This document shows positions 2,657 to 39,844 of a stretch of DNA of 64,000 bases, one piece after another. Source of the DNA: Scenedesmus sp. PABB004. Lineage: Eukaryota. The DNA lies in contig JABVCE010000021.1 in assembly GCA_014905635.1 (NCBI GenBank), forward strand, positions 124,001-188,000, written 5' to 3'. Position 1 is the first letter of the stretch, and each line of letters starts with the position of its first letter. A program made the translations under genes and the position numbers. Under the pieces are notes generated by a model, which worked only from the letters and a program-made list of their open reading frames with translations, searched no databases and was not told the DNA's origin.

Positions 2657-4574
2657 TCAGCTGCGCGCGCCGCGCTGCGAGCCGCCGCCGACGGTGCGCG
2701 GCAGGCCGCCGCGCGCGTCCCAGATGTCTTCCCCAAACGCGTCGTCGTCCGCGCCGGCGCCGTACGCCGCCGGCCCGGTCGCGCCGTCGTCGGCATCGGC
2801 GTCGGCGTCCCAGGGCAGCGGCGCCGCAGCTGCAGCTGCAGGCGCGCCGCCGCCGCCGGCGCCGCGCGCGGCCGGCGGCGCCCCCGGCGGCGCGGCGGCG
2901 GCGGCCGCTGCCTTTTTCCGCGCGCCGCCGGCCTTGCGCCGCGTGAGCGCGGGCGGCAGCTCGCCGCCGAGCAGCTTCTTGAGCCGCGCCTTGGCCTTGG
3001 CCGGCAGCGCGTAGCCGTACGTGGCCGCGAGCTCGGTCGCGAGCGCCGCGCCGGTGTCGGCGTCGACGGTGAACCCCCAGCCCCCGCCGCCGCGCCGCGC
3101 GCCGGGCGCCGCCGTGGCCGCGCCCGCGGCGGTGCTCAGCGCCTCGGCCGCGGCGTCGAGCAGCGCGCGCGGCGCGGCCGCCGCGAGCCCCGCGTCCGCC
3201 ACGATGCCCAGCAGCTCCAGCCAGTCGGCGGGGCCCCAGCCGTCGAGCAGGTTGCGCCCCGCCGGCGCGGAGGTGGGTAGAGCGTCGCTCGGCCCCGCCG
3301 CCGCCGCCGCGGCGGTGGCGGGCAGGTGGTACACCGACGCAGCGAGCAGCTCGCCCAGCAGCGCGGCGCGCGCGCCCGGCGCGTCGCCGAGGCCCAGCGC
3401 GGCGGCGTCGGCGGGGGGCATGTCGAGCACGCCGCCCAGCAGCACCAGCAGCGGGTCGGCCGGCATCGCGCGCCCCAGCCCGCACGCGGCGCGCCGCCAC
3501 AGCGCGCGCAGGCGCGGCGACAGCGCGCCCAGCGCGCCCGCCAGGCCGCCATCGCCGCCGGCGGGCGGGAGGCGCGCCTGCGCCGCGGCGAGCTGCTGCA
3601 GGCAGCCCATGACCGCCGCCGGCAGCTGCCACAGGCCGTCGGCGTCGGCGGCCGCGAGCAGCGCGGCGCGCTCCTTGGCCACGCGCTGCGCCGCCGCGCG
3701 CGCCGCGACGCCCACTGCAGGCGCGCCGCCGCCGCCGCCGCCGCTGGCGAGCGCGACGCGGCGCTCCACCTCGGCCTCCACCGCCGCGCCCAGGTCCGCC
3801 ACAAACGCGGCGGCCTCCCGCGGCGCGCCCGCGCCGGCGCCGCCGCCGCCGCCGCCAGCGGCGGCGCCGCTGGCGGCCAGGCCCAGGCCCGCGCCCAGCA
3901 GGCGCGGCAGGTCGGCGCTGCGCGCGCGCGCGACGGCCGCAAGCAGCGCGGCCTGCAGCTGGCGCGTGAAGATGGCGTCCGGCGTGGCGTGCCCCACTGC
4001 CACGAGCGCGGGCCACACGCCCGCGAGCTCGCCCGGCGCGAGCGCCGCGAGGCCGACGCCGAGGTTGCCGATTAGGCCCTCCACAAACTGCGGCGGGGCG
4101 CGGGCGCCCGGGCCGAGCGCCGCCAGCGCGAACAGCAGCGCCGCGAGGTCGGCGCCGAGCCGCGCCGCGCCCGTGGCGCCGGCGGCGTCGCCCCGCGCCG
4201 CGCCGGGCGCGGCCGCGGCCGAGGTGACGGCCGCCGCGGCGGCGCCGGCGTCGTCGATCCGGGCGTTGACCAGCGGCCACAGGCGCGCGAGCCAGGGCGG
4301 GCTCGCGGACACCTCAGGCGACAGCGCCGCGAGCGCCTGCAGCATCACCACCAGCTGCCCGAGCGGCAGGCCGCGCAGCGCACGGTTGGCGTGGCTCGCG
4401 AGCAGCAGCTCGTCCACGAGCGCCTGCGGCACGGCCGGCCCCGGGCCGCCGCGCGCGCCGCCGCCCTCGTCGTCGTTGCCGTCGCCGTCCCCGAGCGCCG
4501 CCGCCCCGTCGCCGCGCCAGACGCCGAGGCCGAGCGCGTCGCCGCCGTCGTCGCCGCCGTCGTCGGCAAAGCCC

Positions 4575-4629
<55 letters not shown>

Positions 4630-6152
4630 ACGCGGCGCGCGCGAGGCGCTGCTGGCGCCAGCGCGCGAGCGTGAACAGGGCCATAGGGAACTCCTCCCCG
4701 CTCAGCACGGCCGCGTGGGACGCCAGGCCGGACAGGTAGGCCTTCTGCCAGGTGTTGGACGGCGCGCCGCCGTGGCGCGCGAGCGCGTAGCCCACGTGCA
4801 CGAGCGCCGCGGGCGCGAGGGCCGGCAGGTGCGGCTTGGTCGCCTGGCGGCGGCGCGGCAGCGCGGCGCGCATGGGGCCCGCGGCGGCGGCCGGCCGGCG
4901 CTGCGGCGCTGCGGCGCGGGCGCGCTCGCTCGCGGTGCGCGCGCGCTCGCTCACCGCCGCATAGTCTGCGAGCCAGTCGGCGCTGAGGTCGCCCGGCGCC
5001 ACGAGGCGGGAGGCCACAAAGCCCGCGTCCGCGAGGGACTTCGGCTCCAGGTATCGCAGCACCTTGGCGCTGCGCCGCTGCAGCAGGCCGCCAAAGCTCG
5101 TGCGCTGCGGCGGCGCCGCCGGCGCGCCCGCGGCCGGCGGCGGCGGCTCGCGCTCGAGGCTCGCCGGCGGGCGGAAGCCCAGCAGCGCCAGCCCCGCGGC
5201 GCCATGGAAGAGCGCCTCCGCGTCGAGCCGCGGGCTTCGCGTGATCAGCGTCGCGCCGAGCGCGGCGACCGCGCGCCGCCGCGCCGCGGCGGCGGCGGGC
5301 GTGCCGAGCGCGCGCGCGGGGTCGGGCAGGCCCGCGAGTGCCCACACGGCGCCGACGAGCGCGCGGTTGTTCACGCTGCGCGCGCGGGGGCGGGGCGGGG
5401 GGGGGGGGGGGAGGGCGCGGGTACGGAGGGTGCGTGGGAGGCCGGCGCCGGGGCGCCAGCAGGGGCGGCCGCCGCACGGCCGCGCACGGCGGCCGCCGCA
5501 CGGCCGCGCGCGGCGGCGGCCGACGCGGCGCGGCCTCACCGCCCGATGTTTGCCAGCAGCACCTCGGTCATGGCCGCCGCGCCGCCGGCCACCGCCGCGG
5601 CGTCGGGCGGCGCCAGCCGCGCCGCGCCGCCCGGCGGCAGCCGGTTGTGCAGCGCGACGAGCATGTCGCACACGAGCCCCACGTTCCTGCGCCGAGCGGG
5701 CGCGCGCGCGGGGGTCGGCCGGCGCGGCCGCCGACGCCGAGGTGTGCCGCAGCCGCCGCCGCTGCGCTGTGCGCACCGCTCGGCGCCGTCGTCCCCGAGC
5801 TCGCGGAAGAGCGCCAGCACGGTCTGCCAGTCCGGCGCGCCCGCGAGGTGGCCCGCCTTGTCGTCCATGCGGTCCGCAAACTCGCCGGGCTTGAGCTTGG
5901 TCTGGATGTCCTGCTGGTACTGCGAGGGCGCGCCCGGGCGGCGCGGGTGATGCCGCCGCCGCCGCCGCCGTCGCTGCTGCGCGGGCCGCCGCCGCCGCCG
6001 CCGCCGGCGCCGCGCACCGCAAAGTTGACGTCACGCGTGGCTTCCGCAATGTGGCGCGGCCGGGGGCGCACCGGCCGGGCCGCGGGCACGCGCGGGGCGG
6101 CGTGGGCGGGCCTCGCCGCCTGGCATTGCTGCTGCCGCCCGCGCAGCGCCAT
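2657..6152 (-). CDS. Organelle-targeted helical-repeat (OPR/TBC2-like) protein, multi-exon
   Basis: ATG at 6152 opens an Arg/Ala-rich transit-like leader (MALRGRQQQCQAARPAHAAPRV). Degenerate helical repeats: LAPAALVHVGYALARHGGAPSNTWQKAYL, LPLGQLVVMLQALAALSPEVSASPPWLARL, LAPGELAGVWPALVAVGHATPDAIFTRQL. Exon limits only partly resolved. Confidence 0.6.
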
Positions 6153-6629
6153 GGCGGGGCCCGCGCGGCGCCAGCTGCCGCGGGGAGCCTCGCGCTGGGC
6201 GGGGCTCGGTGCGAGACGGGCCGCCGCGGCGCCTGGGGCAGCGCTGAGCTCGCGCAGGCCGCTGAGAGCTCCCGCCAGTGCTGGCTGGCTGCGCGGCTGC
6301 ACGGGCGGCAGCGCCCGGCGTGTGGGCGCAGCTGCTGCTCTGCCCGGGCTGCGGGCGGGCGGGGCGTGCCGGCTGCGCTGCGCTGCGCTGCGGTTCCGCC
6401 GCCAGGCCGCCAGGCCGCTGCCGCCGCGTCTCCAGGCCGGGGGCGTCGCGCGGCCCAGTGTCCCAGTTGCCGCGCCTGTCGGGTGGGCGCCTCCAGCAAG
6501 CCTATCACACACATCAGCAACACACAGAGCCCTCGCTCGCCGGCTGCGGCGGCAGGTCAAGCGCGCGCGACACGCGCATCGCGATGCGCGCGCGCCGCAG
6601 CGCCGCGAGGGCGCGCAAGACGGGCCGCA
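6006..6629 (-). repeat. Segment A: inverted near-identical copy of 12792-13412 (upstream region plus first ~48 codons)
   Basis: Reverse complement matches almost base for base, e.g. ctatcacacacatcagcaacacacagagc versus gctctgtgtgttgctgatgtgtgtgatag. Confidence 0.95.
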
Positions 6630-6814
6630 AGCGAGAAGCAATGGAAATAGTGGCAGCTCATACCGTTGGTTCCGTGCTCTAGTGCGCCGCCAGGAAAAGC
6701 GCGGCATGCAGGACGAATGCTCTCCCCCTCGCGTCGCTCCCGCGGCCCGCCCGCGCGCCGCATATGCCGTGACGCGCGGCAGCCGCGGGCCTCACAGCAA
6801 GCGAGCAGCGCTCC

Positions 6815-6862
6815 GCTGATCCATACGCCCGCATCCCGGCTGATCCATACGCCCGCATCCCG
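6815..6862. repeat. 24-bp tandem duplication
   Basis: gctgatccatacgcccgcatcccg occurs twice in tandem. Confidence 0.9.
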
Positions 6863-7855
6863 GCGCCCTGAAGTGCGTTTATCCGCGGCCGGGGGGGCGC
6901 GCGCGCCATGGGAGCGGCGCGCGCCGCCCGGCCTCGTCCCCAAACGCTGGCCGCCGCGAGCGGCAGGCAGGCAGCCGCGCGCGGCGCTTTTGTGGCATGT
7001 GGCATAGTAGGAGGAGGGTAGCAGAGGGATGACCAAGCGCCAACTTATTCGGCGCGGCTGGCTCGCCGGCGCGGCGCCGGCGCCGGTGGCGGCCGCCGGC
7101 GGCGCCAGCGAATGCGAGCCCGGCCAGCCAGCCAGCGACAAGCCCGCCGCCCGCAGCAGAGCCTCCCGACTCTCTCGTCGCCGCCGCCGTGGCCGGCAGC
7201 GCGCCCGGCCCCGGCCCTGGCCCCGCGGCTGCCGGCGGAGCGACGCCGGGCAGCGGCGGCGCCCAGGCGCCCCAGCCCAGCTCGCCAGAGCCGACCCACC
7301 TCGCCCCACGCCAGGCAGCAGAGACCCCTGGCCGCCCGTCGTCGACGCGCACAAGACATGTCGGGCGACCACCACGCCCACAACTCGCTCGCAGTCCCAG
7401 GCAGCAGAGAGCAGAAAGCCCTGCCAAAAAGATGTGCTGGCCGGCGCGCGCGCCCGCGTCCTGCGGGGCCGGCCGGGCCGGCAGCAGCACCGCGCGCGCC
7501 CCTCCCCACAACCCGAACCGCTTGACCGCCCTCCTCCCCTCCCTGCCGGCGCCGCCCGGGTGGCTATGCCCCCGCCGGCGCCGCAGCACAGCACCCCCCT
7601 TGTGCCGCGCCCACCGCGCGCAGGCGCGCAAAAACGTGGCGCGTCTTCGTGAGTTGAGATGATGATGGCGACGCCGCGAGGCAAGTGCACACACGCACAC
7701 GCACACACAGTCGCAAGAGATCGCGCCGCCGGCGCCGCGCACGTGGGCGCGGCGCCGCGCGGCCTGGCCACGCATGGGTGCGCGCCGGGCGCGCCGCCGC
7801 GGCGGCCTGGCACGAAAAAAGCACCCGACGGTCCGTCGTCGTCACTGGCCACTGC

Positions 7856-9659
7856 TCACAGCTGCAGCATCTGCAGCAGCTCCAGCTGCTGCTGGAGCAG
7901 CCCGGCGCTCACGCCGCCGTCCAGGCCCTGCTCGGCCTGCCCCGCGCCCGCGCCGTGCTCGCCGCCGGCCTCCAGCAGCGCCTGCCACGCCGACAGTGCC
8001 GCGAGCTGCTGCTGCTGCTGGCCCTGGTGGGCGCCGCCCATGCCGGCCGCCGCGGCCGCGGCGGCGGTCGCCGCCGCCGCGTTGGCCTGCGCCAGGGAGG
8101 CCAGCTGCGCCTGAATCAGCCCAAACGCGTGCTCGCCGCCCCCGCCGGGCGGGGTGCTGTGGCGGCGCCCCCGCCCCGCCGGCGGCAGCTGCGCGGACAT
8201 GGGCGGCGCGCCGTGGCCGCCCAGGGCGCCGCACGACTGGCCGAACAGCAGCCCCGCCTGCGCCTGCGCCTGCGCCACCGCGGCGGCCATGGGGTCGACC
8301 AGCAGCCCCGCCGCGCCCTGCAGCCCCGCGGCCTCCAGCAGCAGCGCCTGCTGCAGCGTCAGCAGGCTGCCCTGCCCCGCCGCGTCCCACGCGCCAGCCG
8401 GCGGCGCCGCCGCGGGGCTGGGCAGGCGCTGCCCCGCCTCGAGGCTGCTCCGCGTCGAGAAGCTGCTCGCCGTGCTGACGGTCGCGTAGTCGCGCGCGCC
8501 GCCGCGCGCCGCCGCCTCGGCGGCCGCCGCGGCCTGCCACGCCCACGCGTCGCTGCAGTCGCTGTTGTCCAGGCTCGCGCGCAGCGCGGCCGCGCCGGCC
8601 GCCTCCATGCTCAGCCGCGCGCCGCCGCTGGCGAGCTCTAGGCTCGCCGCGCGCGCGCCCGCGCCGCCCGCGAGCGGCCGCACGCCGAGGTCGAGCGCGG
8701 CGCGGCCGCCGGCCGGCCAGCCCGCCGCGCGCGCCGACGCAAGCGCCGTGCGCGCGTCGAGCGAGCCGCGCTGCGACGACGCGGCGCCGGCGCCGGCGTA
8801 GCACGAGAAGGTGCTCTCCACCGACGCGCGGCTGCTGTAGAGCCCGGCCGCGTCGGCCGACGAGAGGCAGCTCGCGTCGGTCGAGGGCCGCGCCGAGCTC
8901 GCGTCGCACGAGGGCCGCGCGTAGCAGCTGCTGCTGTCGATGCTGCTGCGCGACGCGGAGCGCGCGAGCTCCAGCTCTAGCGACGCGGCGCGCGAGCCCG
9001 CCGCGGCGGCCGCCGCCGCGCACAGGTCGAGCGACGCGCGGCTGCTGCAGGGCGCCAGCCCCGCGGGCGCCGGCGCGGGGCCGGGGGCCTCCGAGAAGCA
9101 GTCGGCGGCGGCGACGAGGTTGCACAGCAGCTGCTGCTGGCGCACGGTCTTGGGCGTGGCGGCAAACGGGTTCTTGCCGCCCCCCGCGCAGCTGCTGCCG
9201 GCGGCGGCGGCGGCGGCGGCGGCGCAGCCGGCGGCCGCGCCGCCGGCGGCGCCCTTGCCGCCCTTGGCGCCGCCGCCGTGCTTGGCGTCCGACTGGCGGT
9301 CGCTGCCGCGGCGCTTGCGGTGCGGCTTGCCCCAGATTGCGGGGTTGTTCTGCGCGCTGCCGTCGAGGATGCAGGCGGGGATGAACACGCCTGCGCGCGG
9401 GAGGGGCCGCCGGCGGAGGCGGCGGGCGGAGGCGGCGGGCGTCGGCGCGCCGCGCCGCGCCGCGCCGCGCCGGCCGCCGTCCTGCAGGCCACACCCCCCG
9501 CCGGCCGCCGTGCCGCGTGCGCGCGCGCTAGCGCGCCGGCGCGCGCGCCGCACCCGTCCCGCCGCCGAGGCCGGGCGCGGCCGCGGCCGCGGCCTCGCCA
9601 GAGTTGGAGCCGGGCGCCGGCGGCGGCTCGGCCGGCTGCGCGCTGGCTGGCATGGTCAT
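7856..9659 (-). CDS. Disordered protein with a GTGVFIP motif and repeated R-x-S-[LIVM]-[DE] motifs
   Basis: Exon 9659-9554 (MTMPASAQPAEPP...GLGGGT) splices GTGCG...GCAG to exon 9391-7856 (GVFIPACILDG...LLQMLQL*), rebuilding GTGVFIP across the junction. Confidence 0.7.
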
Positions 9660-10232
9660 GAACGCCGGGGGCTCAGGGGCCCGCTCCCGGGCGCGTGCGG
9701 TGCCCGCGCCGGCGGCGCGGCGCGCCTCGCGGGACTGCAGGCAACTGCTCGCAGCGGGGGCGCCCTGCTGCCCGGGCGCGCGTGGGTCAGCTCCGGTGGG
9801 TCGCCACGGAGATGGAGGGCGCGCGCATTGACGTGCCGCGCAGGCGCCTGAAAACGAAAGATGGGGCGCGGTCGCGCCGCGCGGCGGGGGGGCGCGCAGC
9901 AAGGTCGGGCGGCGACGGCGGGGCGGGCGGGCGGCGGGGAGTGAGTCCAGGGCGGCGCCGGGGCGCAGCGAGCGCGCCGCCGAGCGGGCGCCTGTCCGCA
10001 GCGCCAGCGCCCCACGCAGGCGTCCCCCGCGCCCGCGCGCCCCGAGGATGCCCGCGCTGGCCCCTCGGCGCCTCAGGGCGCGGGCTGGCGGCTGCTGCTG
10101 CGCGGCGCCGCGCCCGTAAGGCCGGCCCGCCCGCCCGCAGCGCGCCCCGCGCGCGCCGCCGGGGCTCACAATTAGCGCGTTGCGGCCGACATCGCAGCGC
10201 CGACGCCGCTCAGGGGCTGGCCCGCGCGAGTC

Positions 10233-10543
10233 GGGAGCGGGTCGCGGCCTGCAGGGCGCGCCGCGCGCGGCTCCTGGGGCGTGGGTGGTGGTGCGGCGGG
10301 GTGCCCGGCGCGGGGGTGTGGCGAGCGGCGGCGCGGCGCGCGCCCTGCGCGCGCGATACGCGGCCGGGCGCTGTCATAACACCTGTATCAGGCGAAGCAC
10401 GCCCAAGCTGGCGCGTCCTGGAGCTGCGCCTGCGCGTGCCGCACCGCCAGCGCGCTCGGGCCCGGTCGCGCCGAGGCGCCGCGCCGCGGGCGTGCAGGCC
10501 GGGCGGGCCGAGCTCGCTGCGGCGGCCCCGCCAAGGGTGCGGC
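10233..10543 (+). repeat. Segment B copy 1: ~305-bp direct repeat of 12489-12797
   Basis: Near-identical, including ctgtcataacacctgtatcaggcgaagcacgcccaag. Confidence 0.95.
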
Positions 10544-10848
10544 GGCGTGCTGCAGGCCGCGGTCCGGGCTGCCGCCATGGCGCAGCCAGGCGACGGCGGA
10601 CGCGTGGCGCCGCCGGCGGCGGCGAGGCACGGCAGCGCCGCCGCGCACGCCGTGCGCGGTGCCCGGGAGCGCGGCGCGGAGATGCGGGCGGCGCGCGCGG
10701 CTGCCCGCTGCCCCGCGCTCCAACTATGCTGCGCTGGCGCGACGCGGCGCGCGCACGCGCCGCGACGGCGCCCGCCGCCGCTGCTGCTGCGCGGCGGCGC
10801 GCGGCCGCGCCGCCGCCCGCAGCTCGCGCACGCCGCGCCAGGGAGCCA

Positions 10849-12470
10849 CATCGGCGCAAGCTCGCACAGCGCCTCGCCCAGGCGGAACGCGAGAAATGCG
10901 CACCTCGCGCACCGCCTGGGCGAGGCGCTGTGCGGCGGCTGGCCCGATGCGGCAGGTGCGGCCCCGCCTTGCCCGGTGTGTGCAGCGGCAGGTGCGGGGG
11001 CGAGGGCCCGGCGCCGCCGCGCCCGCCCGGTGCGGCGCGCCCGCCCCGGCGCGCGCGCGCCGTGCGCGCGGGGCCGCCGCAGCGCGGGGGTCGCTCAGCA
11101 GCCAACCCTGGTCCCTCGCTGCTGCCGCCTCTCTCCCTCCTCCTCCTCCACCAGGTGCAGCGGGTGGCCCGCAACCGGCCGCCCACTTCAGGCGGCTGCG
11201 TCCCAAGGCTTCTTGTGGAGAAGCCGTAGGACGCCAGCCGCCTGAAGTGGGCGCCCGCGGACGCCCTGCGCAACTCCGGCGCCCTGCCCTGCACGCGGAC
11301 GGTACCACCTGCCTGCCGCGCCAGTTGCACGTGCACCTGTGTGCACGCAGACGGTACCGTCTGCATGGCAGGGCAAGGCGCCGCTGGCGCTCCGTGCGCA
11401 GGGCGTCCTCGCGCGCCCCGTCACGTGATGGGCAGCAGCTTCTCGGTGAGAGCTCACCGACAAGCTCGGCGAGACGCTGCCCAGCGCCACCTGCGTGCGG
11501 CGCTTGTGGTGCGTGCCTGCCCACGCATCATGCGCGCCGACGCGCCCGCGCCTGCGCCGCCGACCTCGCGCCCGCGCGCGCGCGCGCGCGCCGCCCGCCC
11601 GCCAGCGCCGTGGCGCCGCCGGGGCTGCCGCCCCAGGCGCACCGCTCCAGCGCGTTAGTCCCCCGGGCTGAAGACGGCAGTCAGCCCGGGCGAGTACACG
11701 CGCTGGGGCGGCGCGCCTGGGGGGGGGGGGGGGGCTGCCGCAGCGCGCCGGACCGCCTGGCCCGCTGCCGCCGCCGCCGCCGCGGCCGGGCGGTGCGCGC
11801 GTGCTCTGCCCCGCCCGCCCTCCCCCGACCCTCGGCACAGGCTGTGGTAGAGGCGTCGTTCGCCACCGCAGCGGCAAACGGCCGCACCGCAGCCCCGGCG
11901 AGTGGCGGGGGCGCCGCCGCGGCCGCGTGATCGCGCGCGCATGTGTGCTGCGAGCGCGGAGCGGCCCCCGGGCGCTGGCGGCCGCGGCGCTCAAGGCTGG
12001 CGGGGGGCGCTGAGCGCGGCGTACCTGGTGAAGGACGCGAAGGCGAGTTCACGCTGAGCTACGCCGCGCTCAGCGCCCCCCCCCCCCCCCCCCGCGCCGG
12101 CGGCGCCACGCGCTGCCGCTGCTGCCGGGCTGCCGCCGCGCGGGCTGCGGGCGCTGCCGACCTCGAGTCTCACCCCCCGCATCGCCGCGCGGAATACGAG
12201 AAGGGCAAGCTGCACTCGCGTCGCTTGGCGATGTACTCGAGCTGCAGCTGCAGGCGCCGCTCAAACCCTCCGACTGCGCAACACACGCGGCCGCGCTTGC
12301 TGCAGCGCAGGTGTGTGACACCTGTGTGACACCTGCCCTGCATCACGCGCGGCCGCGAGTGCACCGTCGCCGCCTGCGGCAGGCACGCGCGCGCGCACAT
12401 TGCTGCGTGCTGCGGCTGCTGCCACTGCATCATCATCGCCGTCCTTGACGGCATGGCAGCAGCCGCAGCA
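10849..12470. ncRNA. Putative structured non-coding RNA or pre-miRNA-like hairpin cluster
   Basis: At least 8 sequence-unrelated stem-loops, including perfect stems of 23 bp (10863-10885/10912-10934), 22 bp (12002-12023/12060-12081) and 17 bp (12408-12424/12454-12470). No credible protein. Transcription cannot be shown from sequence. Confidence 0.45.
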
Positions 12471-12488
12471 GCAGGCGGTGTCGGCTTT

Positions 12489-13412
12489 GGGAGGGTCGCG
12501 GCCTGCGGGGCGCGCCGCGCGCGGCTCCTGGGGCGTGGGTGGTGGTGCGGCGGGGTGCCCGGCGCGGGGGTGTGGCGAGCGGCGGCGCGGCGCGCGCCCT
12601 GCGCGCGCGATACGCGGCCGGGCGCTGTCATAACACCTGTATCAGGCGAAGCACGCCCAAGCTGGCGCGTCCTGGAGCTGCGCCTGAGCGTGCCGCACCG
12701 CCAGCGCGCTCGGGCCCGGTCGCGCCGAGGCGCCGCGCCGCGGGCGTGCAGGCCGGGCGGGCCGAGCTCGCTGCGGCGGCCCCGCCAAGAGTGCGGCCCG
12801 TCTCGCGCGCGCCCTCGCGGCGCTGCGGCGCGCGCGCATCGCGATGCGCGTGTCGCGCGCGCTTGACCTGCCGCCGCAGCCGGCGAGCGAGGGCTCTGTG
12901 TGTTGCTGATGTGTGTGATAGGCTTGCTGGAGGCGCCCACCCGACAGGCGCGGCAACTGGGACACTGGGCCGCGCGACGCCCCCGGCCTGGAGACGCGGC
13001 GGCAGCGGCCTGGCGGCCTGGCGGCGGAACCGCAGCGCAGCGCAGCCGGCACGCCCCGCCCGCCCGCAGCCCGGGCAGAGCAGCAGCTGCGCCCACACGC
13101 CGGGCGCTGCCGCCCGTGCAGCCGCGCAGCCAGCCAGCACTGGCGGGAGCTCTCAGCGGCCTGCGCGAGCTCAGCGCTGCCCCAGGCGCCGCGGCGGCCC
13201 GTCTCGCACCGAGCCCCGCCCAGCGCGAGGCTCCCCGCGGCAGCTGGCGCCGCGCGGGCCCCGCCATGGCGCTGCGCGGGCGGCAGCAGCAATGCCAGGC
13301 GGCGAGGCCCGCCCACGCCGCGCCGCGCGTGCCCGTGGCCCGGCCGGTGCGCCCCCGGCCGCGCTACATTGCGGGCGCCACGCGCGACGTCAACTTTGCG
13401 GTGCGCGGCGCC
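12489..13412 (+). repeat. Composite B + inverted A block upstream of and overlapping the mTERF-like start
   Basis: 12489-12797 matches 10233-10543 directly; 12792-13412 matches the reverse complement of 6006-6629; the two overlap at tgcggc. Confidence 0.93.
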
Positions 13413-15403
13413 GCCGGCGACGGCGGCGCGCGCGGCGACAGCGGCGCGCGCGGCGACAGCGGCGGCGGCGGCGCCGCCGGCGGCTCTGGCTCCGCCACGG
13501 GCTCAGAGCAGTCGCCCTGGAGACCGGAGCAGCATGCCAAGCTGATGGCGGACCAGCTGGGTCCCGCGTCGGCGCTCCTGGCCGCGCAGGCCCCCGGCGC
13601 GCCGCGGCAGCAGCGGCGCCCCTCGCCGCCAGGCCGGGGCGGGCCCGCGGTCGCCGCGGCCCGGGCGGGGGCGTCCGGGGAGGGCAGCGCGGCTGCCGAG
13701 GTCGGCGCAGGCGGCGTGCGGTCGCAGGGCGATGGCGCCGGCGGTGCCGCCGGCGCGAGCAGCATCAGCAACCTGCGCGAGCGCATGCGGCAGCGCGTCG
13801 CGTCGCGCGCCACGCACTCGGCGGCGCCGTCGCGCGGCAGCACGCGCGCGCCCAGCCCCGCGGCGCCGAGCGGCGGCGGCGGCGGCGGGCCCAAGCTGCC
13901 GCCGCTGCTGCCGTCCACGTCGAACGAGAGCGGCATCTTGGGCGTGCTGCAGCAGCTGCAGCTCAAGATGGGCGGCACGTTCAGCAAGCCCGGCGGCGCC
14001 GGCGGCGGCAGCAGCGCGCCGCCGGCCGCCAAGGCGCCTGCGGCGGGCGGCGCCAAGGCGCGCGGCGCGGCGGACCCGGCCGTGGCCGCGCTCGCGGCGC
14101 GCCAGGCGCGGCAGCGGGCGCTGATGATGCAGAAGGCGGCGCTGCGGGAGCAGCGGCAGGCAGCGTTCAAGCAGCTGCAGGCGGCGGCGGACGCGGGGCG
14201 CGCGCCGCCGCGTGTGGGCGCGGCCGCGGCGCCGGCCAAGCCCGCGCGCGGCCGGCGTCCCGCGAGCGATGCGCCGCCGCTGCCGGGGCTGGCGGACGTC
14301 GTGGCGCGCGCGGGCGCGCCCGAGGCGGTGCGCCGCCGGCTGCTGGCCGACTGCGCGGCGGGGCGGGCGCTGCCGCGGGACCCCGCGGAGCTGCAGCGCC
14401 GCCTGCTGCACTTCAGCACCGTCTCGCCGCTGCTGGGCGGCCCCGAGGCCGCCGCGGCCATCCTGGCGCGCGACGCCGGGGCGATGCTCATGTGCCCGGA
14501 GGCGCTGCGGGGCAAGCTCGACGGCCTGCAGCGCCTGCTGCAGCGGCGCGGCAGCGACGGCGACGGCGGCCGCGGCGGCCCGGGCGAGCCGGGCGGCGAG
14601 CCGGGCGGGCCGGGCGGCGGCGGCGGCCCCAGCGCAGAGGTGCTGGCGCTCGTGCGCTCGCACCCGGGCGTGCTGCGGCTCAGCGCGGACGCGCTGGAGG
14701 CACGGCTGGAGGCGCTGCAGGCGGCGCTGGGGCTGGCCAGCGCGGAGGAGGTGCTGCAGGTCGTGCGCTGGCAGCCGCGCGTGCTGTCCATGAACGCGTC
14801 GGCGCTGCAGCGCAAGGCCGAGTGCCTCGCGGCGGCGCTGCGCGTGCCGCCGGGCGCGGTGCAGGCGCTGCTGGCCAAGCAGCCGCTGCTGCTCAACCTC
14901 TCGGCCGACACGCTCGGCAGCAAGGCCGCGGCGCTGCAGGGCGTGCTGGGGCTGAGCGCGCTGGCGCTGTGGGAGATGGTGTCCTGCAAGCCGGGCGTGC
15001 TGCTGTTCAGCGCCGACAAGCTCGCCGACAAGTGGCGCGACCTGCAGCAGCTCGCGGGTGCGGGGCTGCGCGCGCGCGCGGCGGGGCGCGGCGCGGCGCA
15101 GCCGCCGGCGGGGGCCTGCGCGCCGCCGCCCTCACCTGCGCCGCGCTCACGGCCCGCGCCCGCGCCGCGCGCGCAGCCTCGCACCCGCGCTGGCGGGGCG
15201 AGCTCGCGGAGCTCAGCCCCGCGTCGCTCGTGCAGCTCCTCACGGCGAGCGAGCCGCGGCTGGCGCGGCTGCGCCACGTCGCCGAGGTGGGCGGGCAGGA
15301 GGGCGCGAGCCTCTACTACACCGTGGCGGGGCAGAGCGAGGCGGCGTTCCGGGCGCGGCACCCCGGCTTTGCGGCGGCGCGCGCGCGCCGGGCTGGCGGC
15401 TGA
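13266..15403 (+). CDS. mTERF-family organellar protein (2 exons: 13266-15057, 15177-15403)
   Basis: mTERF-type repeats LVRSHPGVLRLSADALEARLEAL, VVRWQPRVLSMNASALQRKAECL, LLAKQPLLLNLSADTLGSKAAAL, MVSCKPGVLLFSADKL; C-terminus SEAAFRARHPGF; transit-like N-terminus. Confidence 0.8.
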
Positions 15404-34635: not shown

Positions 34636-37600
34636 ATGAGGCGCCTGCTGGCCGCCCTGCTGATGGTGGTGGCGTTTGCTGCGCTCGTCGCAGCAGGTGG
34701 GCGAGCCGGGGGCGAGCCGCCGCCGCGCCACGCGTGCTCGGCGTGACGCGCCTCCGTGCACCGGCCCGCAACCGCAGACGAGGATGAGCTGAGGAAGGTC
34801 CTGGCCGAGCACGAGCACGGCCTGGTGGGCGAGAACCCGGGCGTGGGCACCGCCCACGTCCGCAAGCTGCTCGGTGAGCGCCGTGAGCGCGTGACGCCCG
34901 CCGAAGCCCGCTGCGCGCGCGCCTGGCTGTGTTGCTGACGCTGCCTCGCCCGCTGTGTGGCCTCCTGACAGGTGGCGGCGCGCCCGACAACTGGCAGAAC
35001 TGGGGCGGCCCTGTCGACAAGAAGGTCTGGCAGTGGCAGCAGCCCGCCATCCCCCGCCCCGAGCGCCGCGAGAGCGACACCCGCCGCCTGCTGAGTGAGT
35101 GCCGCTGGCTGCGGGCACAGTGCTGGCGGCTGCCTGAGCGCGCACGAGGCGCGCGGTCTGACGCGCCCGCTGCCGCCGCCGTGCTGCCGCCTCCACGCTT
35201 GCAGGCGCCGATGCAAGCGGACCCGCGTCGCACCAGTTTTCCACCGCCGTGCCTGCTGAGGTGGGCATGAAGCCACGTGAGCCGCACCTGGACGACATGG
35301 AGCGCCTGTTTGCCGAGCACTTTGCGCCGGCTGAGGTGGCCGAGGACAAGCCGCGCGGTCGCAACCTGCTGGGTGAGTGGCCGGCTTGACTGCACTGCTA
35401 CCGTGGCTGCGGGCTGCCCAGGTGCGCGCGCGCCTGGCTGCGTATCTGACGCCGCCTCGCCCGCTGCGTGGCCACCTGACAGGCGGCGGCGCGCCGGACA
35501 ACTGGCAGAACTGGGGCGGCCCTGTTGACAAGAAGGTCTGGCAGTGGCAGCAGCCCGCCATCCCCCGCCCCGAGCGCCGCGAGAGCGACACCCGCCGCCT
35601 GCTGAGTGAGTGCCGCTGGCCGCTGGCACAGTGCTGGCGGCTGCCTGGGTGCGCGCGCGAGGCACGCGGTCTGACGCGCCCGCTGCCGCCGCCGTGCTGC
35701 CGCCTCCACGCTTGCAGGCGCCGATGCAAGCGGCCCCGCGTCGCACCAGTTTTCCACCGCCGTGCCTGCTGAGGTGGGCATGAAGCCGCGTGAGCCGCAC
35801 CTGGACGACATGGAGCGCCTGTTTGCCGAGCACTTTGCGCCGGCTGAGGTGGCCGAGGACATGCCGCGCGGCCGCAACCTGCTTGGCTCCGGTGGCGGCC
35901 ACGGCGGCGGCGGTGCCTCTGGCGGCAACGGCGGCAACGGTGGCCGGACCGGCCCTGCGTGGGTGCGGAGGCTGCTTGGTGCGTGCCGCTGGCTGCGCCC
36001 GCCGCCCGCCGAAGCCCGCTGCGCGCGCGCCTGGCTGTGTTGCTGACGCTGCCTCGCCCGCTGCGTGGCCACCTGACAGGTGGCGGCGCGCCCGACAACT
36101 GGCAGAACTGGGGCGGCCCTGTCGACAAGAAGGTCTGGCAGTGGCAGCAGCCCGCCATCCCCCGCCCCGAGCGCCGCGAGAGCGACACCCGCCGCCTGCT
36201 GAGTGAGTGCCGCTGGCCGCTGGCACAGTGCTGGCGGCTGCCTGGGTGCGCGCGCGAGGCACGCGGTCTGACGCGCCCGCTGCCGCCGCCGTGCTGCCGC
36301 CTCCACGCTTGCAGGCGCCGATGCAAGCGGCCCCGCGTCGCACCAGTTTTCCACCGCCGTGCCTGCTGAGGTGGGCATGAAGCCGCGTGAGCCGCACCTG
36401 GACGACATGGAGCGCCTGTTTGCCGAGCACTTTGCGCCGGCTGAGGTGGCCGAGGACAAGCCGCGCGGTCGCAACCTGCTGGGTGAGTGGCCGGCTTGAC
36501 TGCACTGCTACCGTGGCTGCGGGCTGCCCAGGTGCGCGCGCGCCTGGCTGCGTATCTGACGCCGCCTCGCCCGCTGCGTGGCCACCTGACAGGCGGCGGC
36601 GCGCCGGACAACTGGCAGAACTGGGGCGGCCCTGTTGACAAGAAGGTCTGGCAGTGGCAGCAGCCCGCCATCCCCCGCCCCGAGCGCCGCGAGAGCGACA
36701 CCCGCCGCCTGCTGAGTGAGTGCCGCTGGCCGCTGGCACAGTGCTGGCGGCTGCCTGGGTGCGCGCGCGAGGCACGCGGTCTGACGCGCTCGCTGCCGCC
36801 GCCGTGCTGCCGCCTCCACGCTTGCAGGCGCCGATGCAAGCGGCCCCGCGTCGCACCAGTTTTCCACCGCCGTGCCTGCTGAGGTGGGCATGAAGCCGCG
36901 TGAGCCGCACCTGGACGACATGGAGCGCCTGTTTGCCGAGCACTTTGCGCCGGCTGAGGTGGCCGAGGACATGCCGCGCGGCCGCAACCTGCTTGGCTCC
37001 GGTGGCGGCCACGGCGGCGGCGGTGCCTCTGGCGGCAACGGCGGCAACGGTGGCCGGACCGGCCCTGCGTGGGTGCGGAGGCTGCTTGGTGCGTGCCGCT
37101 GGCTGCGCCCGCCGCCCGCCGAAGCCCGCTGCGCGCGCGCCTGGCTGTGTTGCTGACGCTGCCTCGCCCGCTGTGTGGCCTCCTGACAGGTGGCGGCGCG
37201 CCCGACAACTGGCAGAACTGGGGCGGCCCTGTTGACAAGAAGGTCTGGCAGTGGCAGCAGCCCGCCATCCCCCGCCCCGAGCGCCGCGAGAGCGACACCC
37301 GCCGCCTGCTGAGTGAGTGCCGCTGGCCGCTGGCACAGTGCTGGCGGCTGCCTGGGTGCGCGCGCGAGGCACGCGGTCTGACGCGCTCGCCGCCGTGCTG
37401 CCGCCTCCACGCTTGCAGGCGCCGATGCAAGCGGCCCCGCGTCGCACCAGTTTTCCACCGCCGTGCCTGCTGAGGTGGGCATGAAGCCGCGTGAGCCGCA
37501 CCTGGACGACATGGAGCGCCTGTTTGCCGAGCACTTTGCGCCGGCTGAGGTGGCCGAGGACAAGCCGCGCGGTCGCAACCTGCTGGGTGAGTGGCCGGCT

Positions 37601-39844
37601 TGACTGCACTGCTACCGTGGCTGCGGGCTGCCCAGGTGCGCGCGCGCCTGGCTGCGTATCTGACGCCGCCTCGCCCGCTGCGTGGCCACCTGACAGGCGG
37701 CGGCGCGCCGGACAACTGGCAGAATTGGGGCGGCCCTGTTGACAAGAAGGTCTGGCAGTGGCAGCAGCCCGCCATCCCTCGCCCCGAGCGCCGCGAGAGC
37801 GACACCCGCCGCCTGCTGAGTGAGTGCCGCTGGCTGCGGGCACAGTGCTGGCGGCTGCCTGGGTGCGCGCGCGAGGCACGCGGTCTGACGCGCCCGCTGC
37901 CGCCGCCGTGCTGCCGCCTCCACGCTTGCAGGCGCCGATGCAAGCGGCCCCGCGTCGCACCAGTTTTCCACCGCCGTGCCTGCTGAGGTGGGCATGAAGC
38001 CGCGTGAGCCGCACCTGGACGACATGGAGCGCCTGTTTGCCGAGCACTTTGCGCCGGCTGAGGTGGCCGAGGACATGCCGCGCGGCCGCAACCTGCTTGG
38101 CTCCGGTGGCGGCCACGGCGGCGGCGGTGCCTCTGGCGGCAACGGCGGCAACGGTGGCCGGACCGGCCCTGCGTGGGTGCGGAGGCTGCTTGGTGCGTGC
38201 CGCTGGCTGCGCCCGCCGCCCGCCGAAGCCCGCTGCGCGCGCGCCTGGCTGTGTTGCTGACGCTGCCTCGCCCGCTGTGTGGCCTCCTGACAGGTGGCGG
38301 CGCGCCCGACAACTGGCAGAACTGGGGCGGCCCTGTTGACAAGAAGGTCTGGCAGTGGCAGCAGCCCGCCATCCCCCGCCCCGAGCGCCGCGAGAGCGAC
38401 ACCCGCCGCCTGCTGAGTGAGTGCCGCTGGCCGCTGGCACAGTGCTGGCGGCTGCCTGGGTGCGCGCGCGAGGCACGCGGTCTGACGCGCTCGCCGCCGT
38501 GCTGCCGCCTCCACGCTTGCAGGCGCCGATGCAAGCGGCCCCGCGTCGCACCAGTTTTCCACCGCCGTGCCTGCTGAGGTGGGCATGAAGCCGCGTGAGC
38601 CGCACCTGGACGACATGGAGCGCCTGTTTGCCGAGCACTTTGCGCCGGCTGAGGTGGCCGAGGACAAGCCGCGCGGTCGCAACCTGCTGGGTGAGTGGCC
38701 GGCTTGACTGCACTGCTACCGTGGCTGCGGGCTGCCCAGGTGCGCGCGCGCCTGGCTGCGTATCTGACGCCGCCTCGCCCGCTGCGTGGCCACCTGACAG
38801 GCGGCGGCGCGCCGGACAACTGGCAGAATTGGGGCGGCCCTGTTGACAAGAAGGTCTGGCAGTGGCAGCAGCCCGCCATCCCTCGCCCCGAGCGCCGCGA
38901 GAGCGACACCCGCCGCCTGCTGAGTGAGTGCCGCTGGCTGCGGGCACAGTGCTGGCGGCTGCCTGGGTGCGCGCGCGAGGCACGCGGTCTGACGCGCCCG
39001 CTGCCGCCGCCGTGCTGCCGCCTCCACGCTTGCAGGCGCCGATGCAAGCGGCCCCGCGTCGCACCAGTTTTCCACCGCCGTGCCTGCTGAGGTGGGCATG
39101 AAGCCGCGTGAGCCGCACCTGGACGACATGGAGCGCCTGTTTGCCGAGCACTTTGCGCCGGCTGAGGTGGCCGAGGACATGCCGCGCGGCCGCAACCTGC
39201 TTGGCTCCGGTGGCGGCCACGGCGGCGGCGGTGCCTCTGGCGGCAACGGCGGCAACGGTGGCCGGACCGGCCCTGCGTGGGTGCGGAGGCTGCTTGGTGC
39301 GTGCCGCTGGCTGCGCCCGCCGCCCGCCCAGCCCGGTGCGCGCGCGCCTGGCTGTGTTGCTGACGCTGCCTCGCCCGCTGCGTGGCCACCTGACAGGTGG
39401 CGGCGCGCCCGACAACTGGCAGAACTGGGGCGGCCCTGTCGACAAGAAGGTCTGGCAGTGGCAGCAGCCCGCCATCCCCCGCCCCGAGCGCCGCGAGAGC
39501 GACACCCGCCGCCTGCTGAGTGAGTGACCCGACCGACCCTAGGTGCGGTTGTCCGGCGCTGCGGCCTGCCGCGCAAAAAGCAGGCCGCAGCGTCGGCCGA
39601 GGCACCGCGCGCGCGCCCGCCGACGCCGGCCCCGCGCCCGCCCGGCCGCCTGGCCACAGGCACGGACGACAGCCGCCACGGCCCTGCCAGCTGGGGCTAC
39701 CGCATGCATGGCCAGGACAAAATCTATGAGCTTCTCAAGCAGCGCCCCAAGGGCGAGGCGCCCGTGGTGCCCGATGACGAGCGGTTCAACCGCCCGCCGC
39801 TGGAATACGTCGCCGGCGCCGGCGCCGAGCCGAGCGGGGAGTGA
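34636..39844 (+). CDS. Secreted repetitive prepro-polypeptide (~1050 aa, 20 exons) with R-x-L-L-delimited modules
   Basis: Exon 34636-34696 encodes signal peptide MRRLLAALLMVVAFAALVAA; exon 34778-34873; nine 123-nt exons starting 34972, 35483, 36080, 36593, 37190, 37697, 38294, 38801, 39397, alternating with 168-nt or 261-nt exons; last exon 39660-39844. All introns are GT-AG and phase 1, and the spliced frame has no stop. Confidence 0.85.
34905..39525. repeat. Higher-order tandem array (~510 + ~597 bp subunits, period ~1.1 kb, about 4 dimers plus one partial unit)
   Basis: Near-identical units recurring at 1104-1110 bp spacing, introns included. Confidence 0.97.

Follow-up and report, generated by a model that had tools for sequence, protein, structure and literature searches.

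The 5' end of an mTERF gene in Scenedesmus sp. PABB004 is a patch of two nearby sequences, one of them apparently copied from an OPR-like gene

We analyzed a 64,000-nt stretch of the genome of Scenedesmus sp. PABB004 (GenBank assembly GCA_014905635.1, contig JABVCE010000021.1, positions 124,001 to 188,000 of the forward strand; hereafter, the window), in which two unrelated genes, an OPR-like gene (gene A) and an mTERF gene (gene B), open with nearly the same leader and the same upstream DNA. The 5' end of gene B is a 920-bp patch that matches two templates, a direct copy of a nearby intergenic segment followed by an inverted copy of the 5' end of gene A. We are highly confident that the duplicated 5' ends are real. 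The fuller reading, that the gene B 5' end is a recent copy of gene A laid down by two-template repair and now provides a working in-frame leader, we consider probable. The window has a G+C content of approximately 80% and contains no N; its 734-kb contig belongs to a 40-Mb assembly of 80 contigs. Named relatives of the window proteins come from Scenedesmus sp., Tetradesmus obliquus and Hariotina reticulata. The features that make up the patch and the two genes are as follows, in window coordinates.

6006 to 6629, minus strand: segment A, template 1, comprising 477 bp upstream of gene A, the 45 codons of exon 1 and 12 nt from the start of intron 1
10239 to 10543, plus strand: segment C, template 2, non-coding intergenic DNA, 305 bp, 99% identical to 12493-12797
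12493 to 12797, plus strand: segment D, left part of the patch, a direct copy of segment C
12792 to 12797, plus strand: microhomology TGCGGC, 6 bp, the end of segment C and the start of inverted segment A
12792 to 13412, plus strand: segment B, right part of the patch, an inverted copy of segment A
13405 to 13484, plus strand: imperfect triplet tract encoding a Gly-rich linker, at the right junction (tandem repeat scan)
2657 to 6152, minus strand: gene A, 1047 aa, exons 6152-6018, 5919-5777, 5686-5540 and 5375-2657; alpha-solenoid, OPR/FAST/RESC6-like
13266 to 15403, plus strand: gene B, mTERF, 672 aa, exons 13266-15057 and 15177-15403; first 45-49 codons apparently from gene A

The inverted pair aligned over 626 columns with seven difference events, and the aligned ends included 477 bp of upstream DNA in gene A and 474 bp in gene B. 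A preliminary description of the locus had placed the two start codons at 6152 (minus) and 13266 (plus) and had estimated about 475 bp of common upstream DNA, all of which our measurements bore out. It had not described the left-hand piece, in which 305 bp differ from segment C by three mismatches. The two pieces of the patch overlap by the 6-bp TGCGGC, and of 200,000 random joins drawn within the window 1.2% reached at least this length; microhomology was scored at the middle junction only, as scoring of the two outer junctions needs an earlier allele. A search of the alga's own genome with 12440-13460 as the query returned 35 matches (such counts being lower bounds), comprising the query, two long, near-identical local partners and 32 short GC-rich stretches with identities of at most 88%. 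By this search each piece of the patch has two copies, all of them within 7.5 kb. The right end of the patch falls inside imperfect triplet tracts in both copies (5952-6013 and 13405-13484). Continuation of the homology into the gene A intron was considered, and the similarity past 13412 is borderline, with 5% of 559 matched controls scoring as high.

The extent of the shared leader depends on the structure of gene A, for which two further features are needed.

5920 to 6017, minus strand: intron 1 of gene A, 98 nt, donor GCG/GTGCGC, placed by orthologue alignment, its first part an imperfect triplet tract (5952-6013) at which the homology stops
13401 to 13412, plus strand: copied 5' splice donor of gene A intron 1, inside the gene B frame, in a context identical to that of the gene A donor

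The preliminary description gave the shared leader as about 48 aa. Its near-identity held, with 42 of 45 residues the same and the three differences (A24V, H34Y and E37G) as described, but its length did not. The shared coding part is 45 aa, and gene B carries the splice donor of gene A, because the 12 bp that encode VRGA in the gene B frame are the start of intron 1 in gene A. In both orthologues that cover the site (two of the three found), the end of exon 1, ATRDxxFA, is joined directly to YQxDIQTKLKPG, and since FA meets YQ in this way a 1-nt frameshift in gene A in place of the intron was ruled out. Read through without splicing, the gene A leader frame stops at 5568. The spliced model is open and matches the orthologues P0005 (46% over residues 31-647), P0006 and P0007; gene A has one match in its own genome. 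The leader is rich in Arg, Ala and Pro, with nine basic and one to two acidic residues in 45.

Comparison of orthologues argues strongly that copying ran from gene A to gene B. Gene A is the likely donor because its orthologues keep the exon-1 end and because one of them, P0006, is a relative's fused gene model that holds gene M and then gene A, in the order found in the window; tracing the leader through orthologue N-termini, as the preliminary description had suggested, thus pointed to gene A. Gene B is the likely recipient because mTERF orthologues have unrelated leaders of their own. The sequences compared were the best 14 of 150 listed profile matches plus four cluster members, and two of them, P0025 and P0164, have Met-started frames that extend well beyond a conserved W motif on its upstream side. 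These frames supply 78 and 107 residues before the motif (W at 79 and 108, versus 85 in gene B), and neither leader resembles that of gene A.

13518 to 13568, plus strand: native mTERF motif W-x-P-x-x-H ... QL-x-PA, residues 85-101 of gene B, kept in P0025 and P0164 and partly in P0028
12453 to 12494, plus strand: orphan ATG, 40 nt to the left of the patch, now opening a 137-codon upstream frame that ends at 12866
7856 to 9391, minus strand: main exon of gene M, a protein without a name, upstream of gene A

Judging from the native motif, the gene's own coding sequence is resumed by 13518-13568. Ahead of this motif gene B lacks any native in-frame ATG, the next being at 13545, and the stretch 13401-13589 scores as coding (0.28 and 0.18). 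With moderate confidence, we infer that gene B lost its own leader. The change would then be a leader swap rather than a gain, because mTERF orthologues already have N-terminal leaders, and the earlier proposal that gene B gained co-targeting with gene A is probably overstated, given the 78-107 aa that precede in those orthologues a motif that gene B keeps. Co-regulation, proposed there too, is a possibility, with only 477 bp of upstream DNA in common.

The identity of gene B as an mTERF gene, proposed from its translation, was upheld by a match to PF02536 above the cut-off (33.8 versus 23.1 bits, E 2e-8, residues 455-590); the named orthologue P0003 scored 28.4 bits. The spliced model is open, and its other matches in the same genome are at most 41% identical. 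In excerpts of PMC4005652, plant mTERF members are reported to localize to mitochondria or chloroplasts. We think it somewhat more probable than otherwise that gene B is expressed and that its product is imported through the borrowed leader.

The ATG at 12453 is a tentative and rather doubtful candidate for the former start of gene B. An ATG so placed has a chance expectation of about 11% (six such ATGs in 3071 bp), and its codon score is unfavorable (-0.88). A second upstream ATG, at 12909, is in frame with gene B through a 5-nt indel at 13031 and adds 119 possible codons with a non-coding score; its counterpart in gene A (6514) does not share the frame of exon 1. A displaced copy of the old gene B leader was sought by tblastn in 5900-13800, where, among the matches listed, the best was the native motif and the others were noise. 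Neither a hidden gene at ATG 10578 nor segment D as the old coding start of gene B had a coding signal (-0.58, -0.56).

To place the locus in context, we self-aligned 864 kb of the assembly, a non-random sample of 464 kb of the gene's own contig and 200 kb from each of two others. Of 46 rows, 37 were dropped (22 from one tandem array, two other tandem or intragenic, 12 from multi-copy or distant families, and one between contigs), two were the locus described here, and seven were other two-copy pairs of 232-920 bp lying within 15 kb. By reading of the sequence, two of these seven appear to hold the upstream region, ATG and first intron of a gene, and in neither of those two was an in-frame join to another coding region seen. 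Local copying is therefore ordinary in this genome, and the in-frame outcome is the rarer part.

The seven differences between the gene A and gene B copies are unevenly spread. There is no substitution in 12807-13321 (515 bp), where the 5-nt indel at 13031 is the one change, and six substitutions lie in 13322-13385. A 64-bp stretch at the 3' end holds five of the seven events (P=0.007 relative to a uniform spread; 0.015 over the whole 920 bp), and since the test was chosen after the pattern had been seen these P values are indicative only. At the H34Y site, gene B has Y where both gene A orthologues have H, and two of the differing sites carry in gene A codons that are very seldom used in this genome (GAA, 45 versus 3098 for GAG; CGT, 82 versus 3243 for CGC). 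Both copies seem, on this codon and residue evidence, to have changed since copying, and because of this we slightly favor an older copy in which re-copying or conversion later renewed the upstream part. That a single error-prone event explains the 3' clustering is somewhat short of an even prospect; error-prone synthesis near the junction could yield such clustering. Gene conversion, which had been raised in the preliminary description, is a plausible contributor in view of the clustering. A third template as the source of the clustered differences was also considered, and second copies of just 12-20 nt in the 864 kb proved uninformative.

We propose the following route, with moderate confidence in template-switch repair as the origin of the patch. 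Gene B, present in a single copy, would have suffered a break or a stalled fork within its 5' end, and repair would have copied segment C (305 bp, about 2 kb away, in direct orientation) and then the gene A 5' end (624 bp, about 6 kb away, inverted). The switch between templates would have taken place at the 6-bp microhomology, with rejoining to gene B in the triplet-rich tract, so that the 920-bp patch replaced the start of gene B and most of its leader. The patch may have persisted because upstream DNA, ATG and leader came in frame: with the proximal upstream DNA, start codon and leader of gene A, gene B would still be made and imported into an organelle. The earlier proposal of capture of upstream DNA and leader by inverted duplication was supported as to a recent, local, inverted copy, but the event does not appear to have been a simple one, as the patch has two templates.

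Several points weigh against this route and its working outcome. For the mTERF orthologues, the frames come from gene calling on contigs and have predicted starts, and P0003 is without this region. The synteny argument is one fused gene model, P0006, whose residues 13-38 match 9391-9314, 137-165 match 9175-9089 and 265-519 match gene A; on this one record the M-to-A order is probably ancestral. DNA of a close relative covering the locus was sought by a metagenome scan with P0007 and was not found, the five weak loci returned (27-41% identity) being non-orthologous and left unused. Gene B could also lose a part, or have one shifted, through the splice donor that came with the copy. Lastly, the phasing is as assembled and expression is presumed, and the outer junctions and the deleted length need a pre-event allele.

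Alternatively, the borrowed 5' end may be older and kept alike by repeated conversion, as one promoter-leader module, common to two unrelated genes for organellar nucleic-acid-binding proteins, in concerted evolution amid frequent local copying. We regard this as unlikely, though deserving of some weight. If it were true, the 6.2 kb between the inverted copies would be able to flip, and the locus would be one product of a short-range copy-paste process, running at about one event per 110 kb sampled, that trades gene 5' ends.

A further alternative, also unlikely, is that the patch is real and damages gene B, which would then be a weakened or failing allele and not a functional chimera. Transcripts from the old promoter would be spoiled by the upstream frame at 12453-12866, which is present, or the message would be spliced from the copied donor at 13401, whose context is identical to the real donor of gene A. 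Splicing to the in-frame AG at 13556 or 13589 would remove the conserved motif, and 13459, 13506 or 13710 would shift the frame; of these, the AG at 13589 is similar to genuine acceptors here. In the survey, the two other copies of gene 5' ends, with no in-frame join, look like dead ends. Against such damage, the gene B frame is open over 672 codons, gene B is the sole close copy, and 13401-13589 keeps its coding scores, although a very recent hit would show no decay yet.

We think it very unlikely that a chimeric read or mis-join placed both pieces at the gene B 5' end. Library preparation is known to yield inverted local chimeras with microhomology as an artifact, and 515 bp of the pair are without a substitution. 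However, the copies differ by seven and three events, and the window is free of N within its long contig. Four of the seven other local pairs keep differences through their middles, which indicates that repeat centers are not generally collapsed by the assembler, and an artifact would need to delete the true start of gene B and provide an in-frame replacement. The idea that gene B was the donor, or that the segment represents a mobile element or else an ancient domain common to both genes, is largely refuted and most improbable: gene A intron 1 is slightly coding-like (0.11) and has a borderline likeness to the gene B linker, but the exon-1 end is kept by gene A orthologues and absent from gene B orthologues, and the two copies found per piece (a lower bound) are clustered within 7.5 kb and not dispersed.

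Returning to the donor, the preliminary description had called gene A OPR-like, and a resemblance stands, but a Pfam scan of its large exon and of its three orthologues found no family. Atlas neighbors of gene A and an orthologue were chlorophyte helical repeats of the FAST/RAP/RESC6 type, the score of gene A itself being weak evidence, and the orthologue model matched FAST/RAP/RESC6 clusters with a TM of about 0.5. A loose OPR pattern of our own making gave seven matches in gene A, with one neighboring pair 38 residues apart (569, 607), and one pair with 38-residue spacing each in P0005 and P0007. Among the pattern matches in gene A there was no exact PPPEW, only degenerate forms. Gene A may work like an OPR protein, which is a statement of likeness and not of family membership.

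At 14634-15057 in gene B, several mTERF orthologue gene calls end at LQ/V or break near DK/V. This suggests that the orthologues have introns at these sites, and gene B, which reads through both, may have lost two introns. A scan of 9420-13260 in all frames found no coding signal. The approximately 3 kb at 9420-12490, without coding signal, nevertheless has splice-site-like sequences near 11155 and 11840 and possibly represents long untranslated or non-coding transcripts. Pfam found no family in gene M or the intergenic frames, an exact look-up of six raw open reading frames in the sequence collection found none of them (0/6), and a bacterial promoter scan, a method unsuited to a eukaryote, returned nothing.

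Among the surveyed repeats on the window's contig (C15), 201154-201896 / 205965-206707 is a 744-bp, 99.5% identical direct copy that spans the upstream DNA of a gene, its ATG and first intron, and a portion of exon 2; judging by motifs we take the source gene to be flavin amine-oxidase-like and the gene downstream of the extra copy to have an SBP-like domain. A 646-bp, 96% identical direct copy of a gene 5' end (397415-398055 / 402852-403495), presumably, judging by a motif, of a glucan-synthase-like gene, has its extra copy ending against the apparent 3' end of an opposite-strand gene. An inverted 543-bp, 91% identical pair (458822-459339 / 464056-464593) lies upstream of two different convergent coding regions and opens with the apparent 3' half of a tRNA, where ARAGORN called no tRNA (L060, L061). 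The tandem array at window positions 34858-39526 (C15 158858-163526) has units of about 1.1 kb with two related subunits (about 510 and 597 bp) that are 95-99% identical. Dispersed multi-kb repeats of 92-95% identity (C15 109209-114163 / 262044-266912; C13 1806422-1809479, 1823247-1825389 and 1863732-1866766) are probably mobile elements or members of gene families.

Inferences of leader swapping by exon shuffling usually come from old, diverged cases. At this locus the donor, the recipient, the second template and the junctions all fit into 8 kb, with identities of 96-99%, so that the mutational route is directly readable. The locus lends itself to a simple test of the interchangeability of leaders and proximal promoters among unrelated organellar proteins. 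There is a warning for annotation too, in that a copied first exon brings a live splice donor. Judged by titles and the openings of abstracts, our literature searches turned up no comparable case in a green alga, weak evidence in view of the limited literature coverage. The locus is a clean, recent example of a known gene-shuffling process, with no new mechanism or protein family.

In excerpts of PMC8635915, OPR proteins are described as tandem, degenerate, 38-40 aa helix-turn-helix repeats with a PPPEW-like consensus, some carrying another consensus. Gene A is like the OPR and FAST/RAP/RESC6 proteins in its chlorophyte helical-repeat neighbors and its few degenerate motifs 37-38 residues apart, and unlike them in having no Pfam match, no exact PPPEW among its matched motifs and no demonstrated continuous array. 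Gene B is like the mTERF family in exceeding the Pfam cut-off and unlike it in its long, low-complexity N-terminal half and borrowed leader. Leaders copied from existing genes are cited, in the parts of PMC2631504 and PMC7488351 consulted, for rice rps11 (from atp2), Arabidopsis sdh3 (from hsp70), carrot rps10 (from hsp22) and Populus rpl32 (from Cu-Zn SOD), and an excerpt of PMC7456531 names exon shuffling among the sources of transit peptides. As far as those excerpts go, the rps11-type cases are alike in that the leader-encoding 5' part of a nuclear gene was copied onto an unrelated coding region. There, however, the recipient was a newly moved organellar gene without a leader, whereas gene B is a resident gene whose orthologues have leaders; the donor here is about 7 kb away, the copy includes 477 bp upstream and a splice donor, and the junctions are still readable. 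Locally copied templates in series are, in excerpts of PMC7025897 and PMC4352052, the pattern of replication-based copy-and-paste repair (FoSTeS/MMBIR), which our locus resembles in its strung local templates (one direct, one inverted), junction microhomology and base changes near junctions. The cases in those excerpts are human tumors and genomic disorders at a far larger scale, whereas the patch described here is a sub-kilobase one in an algal assembly that formed an in-frame chimera.

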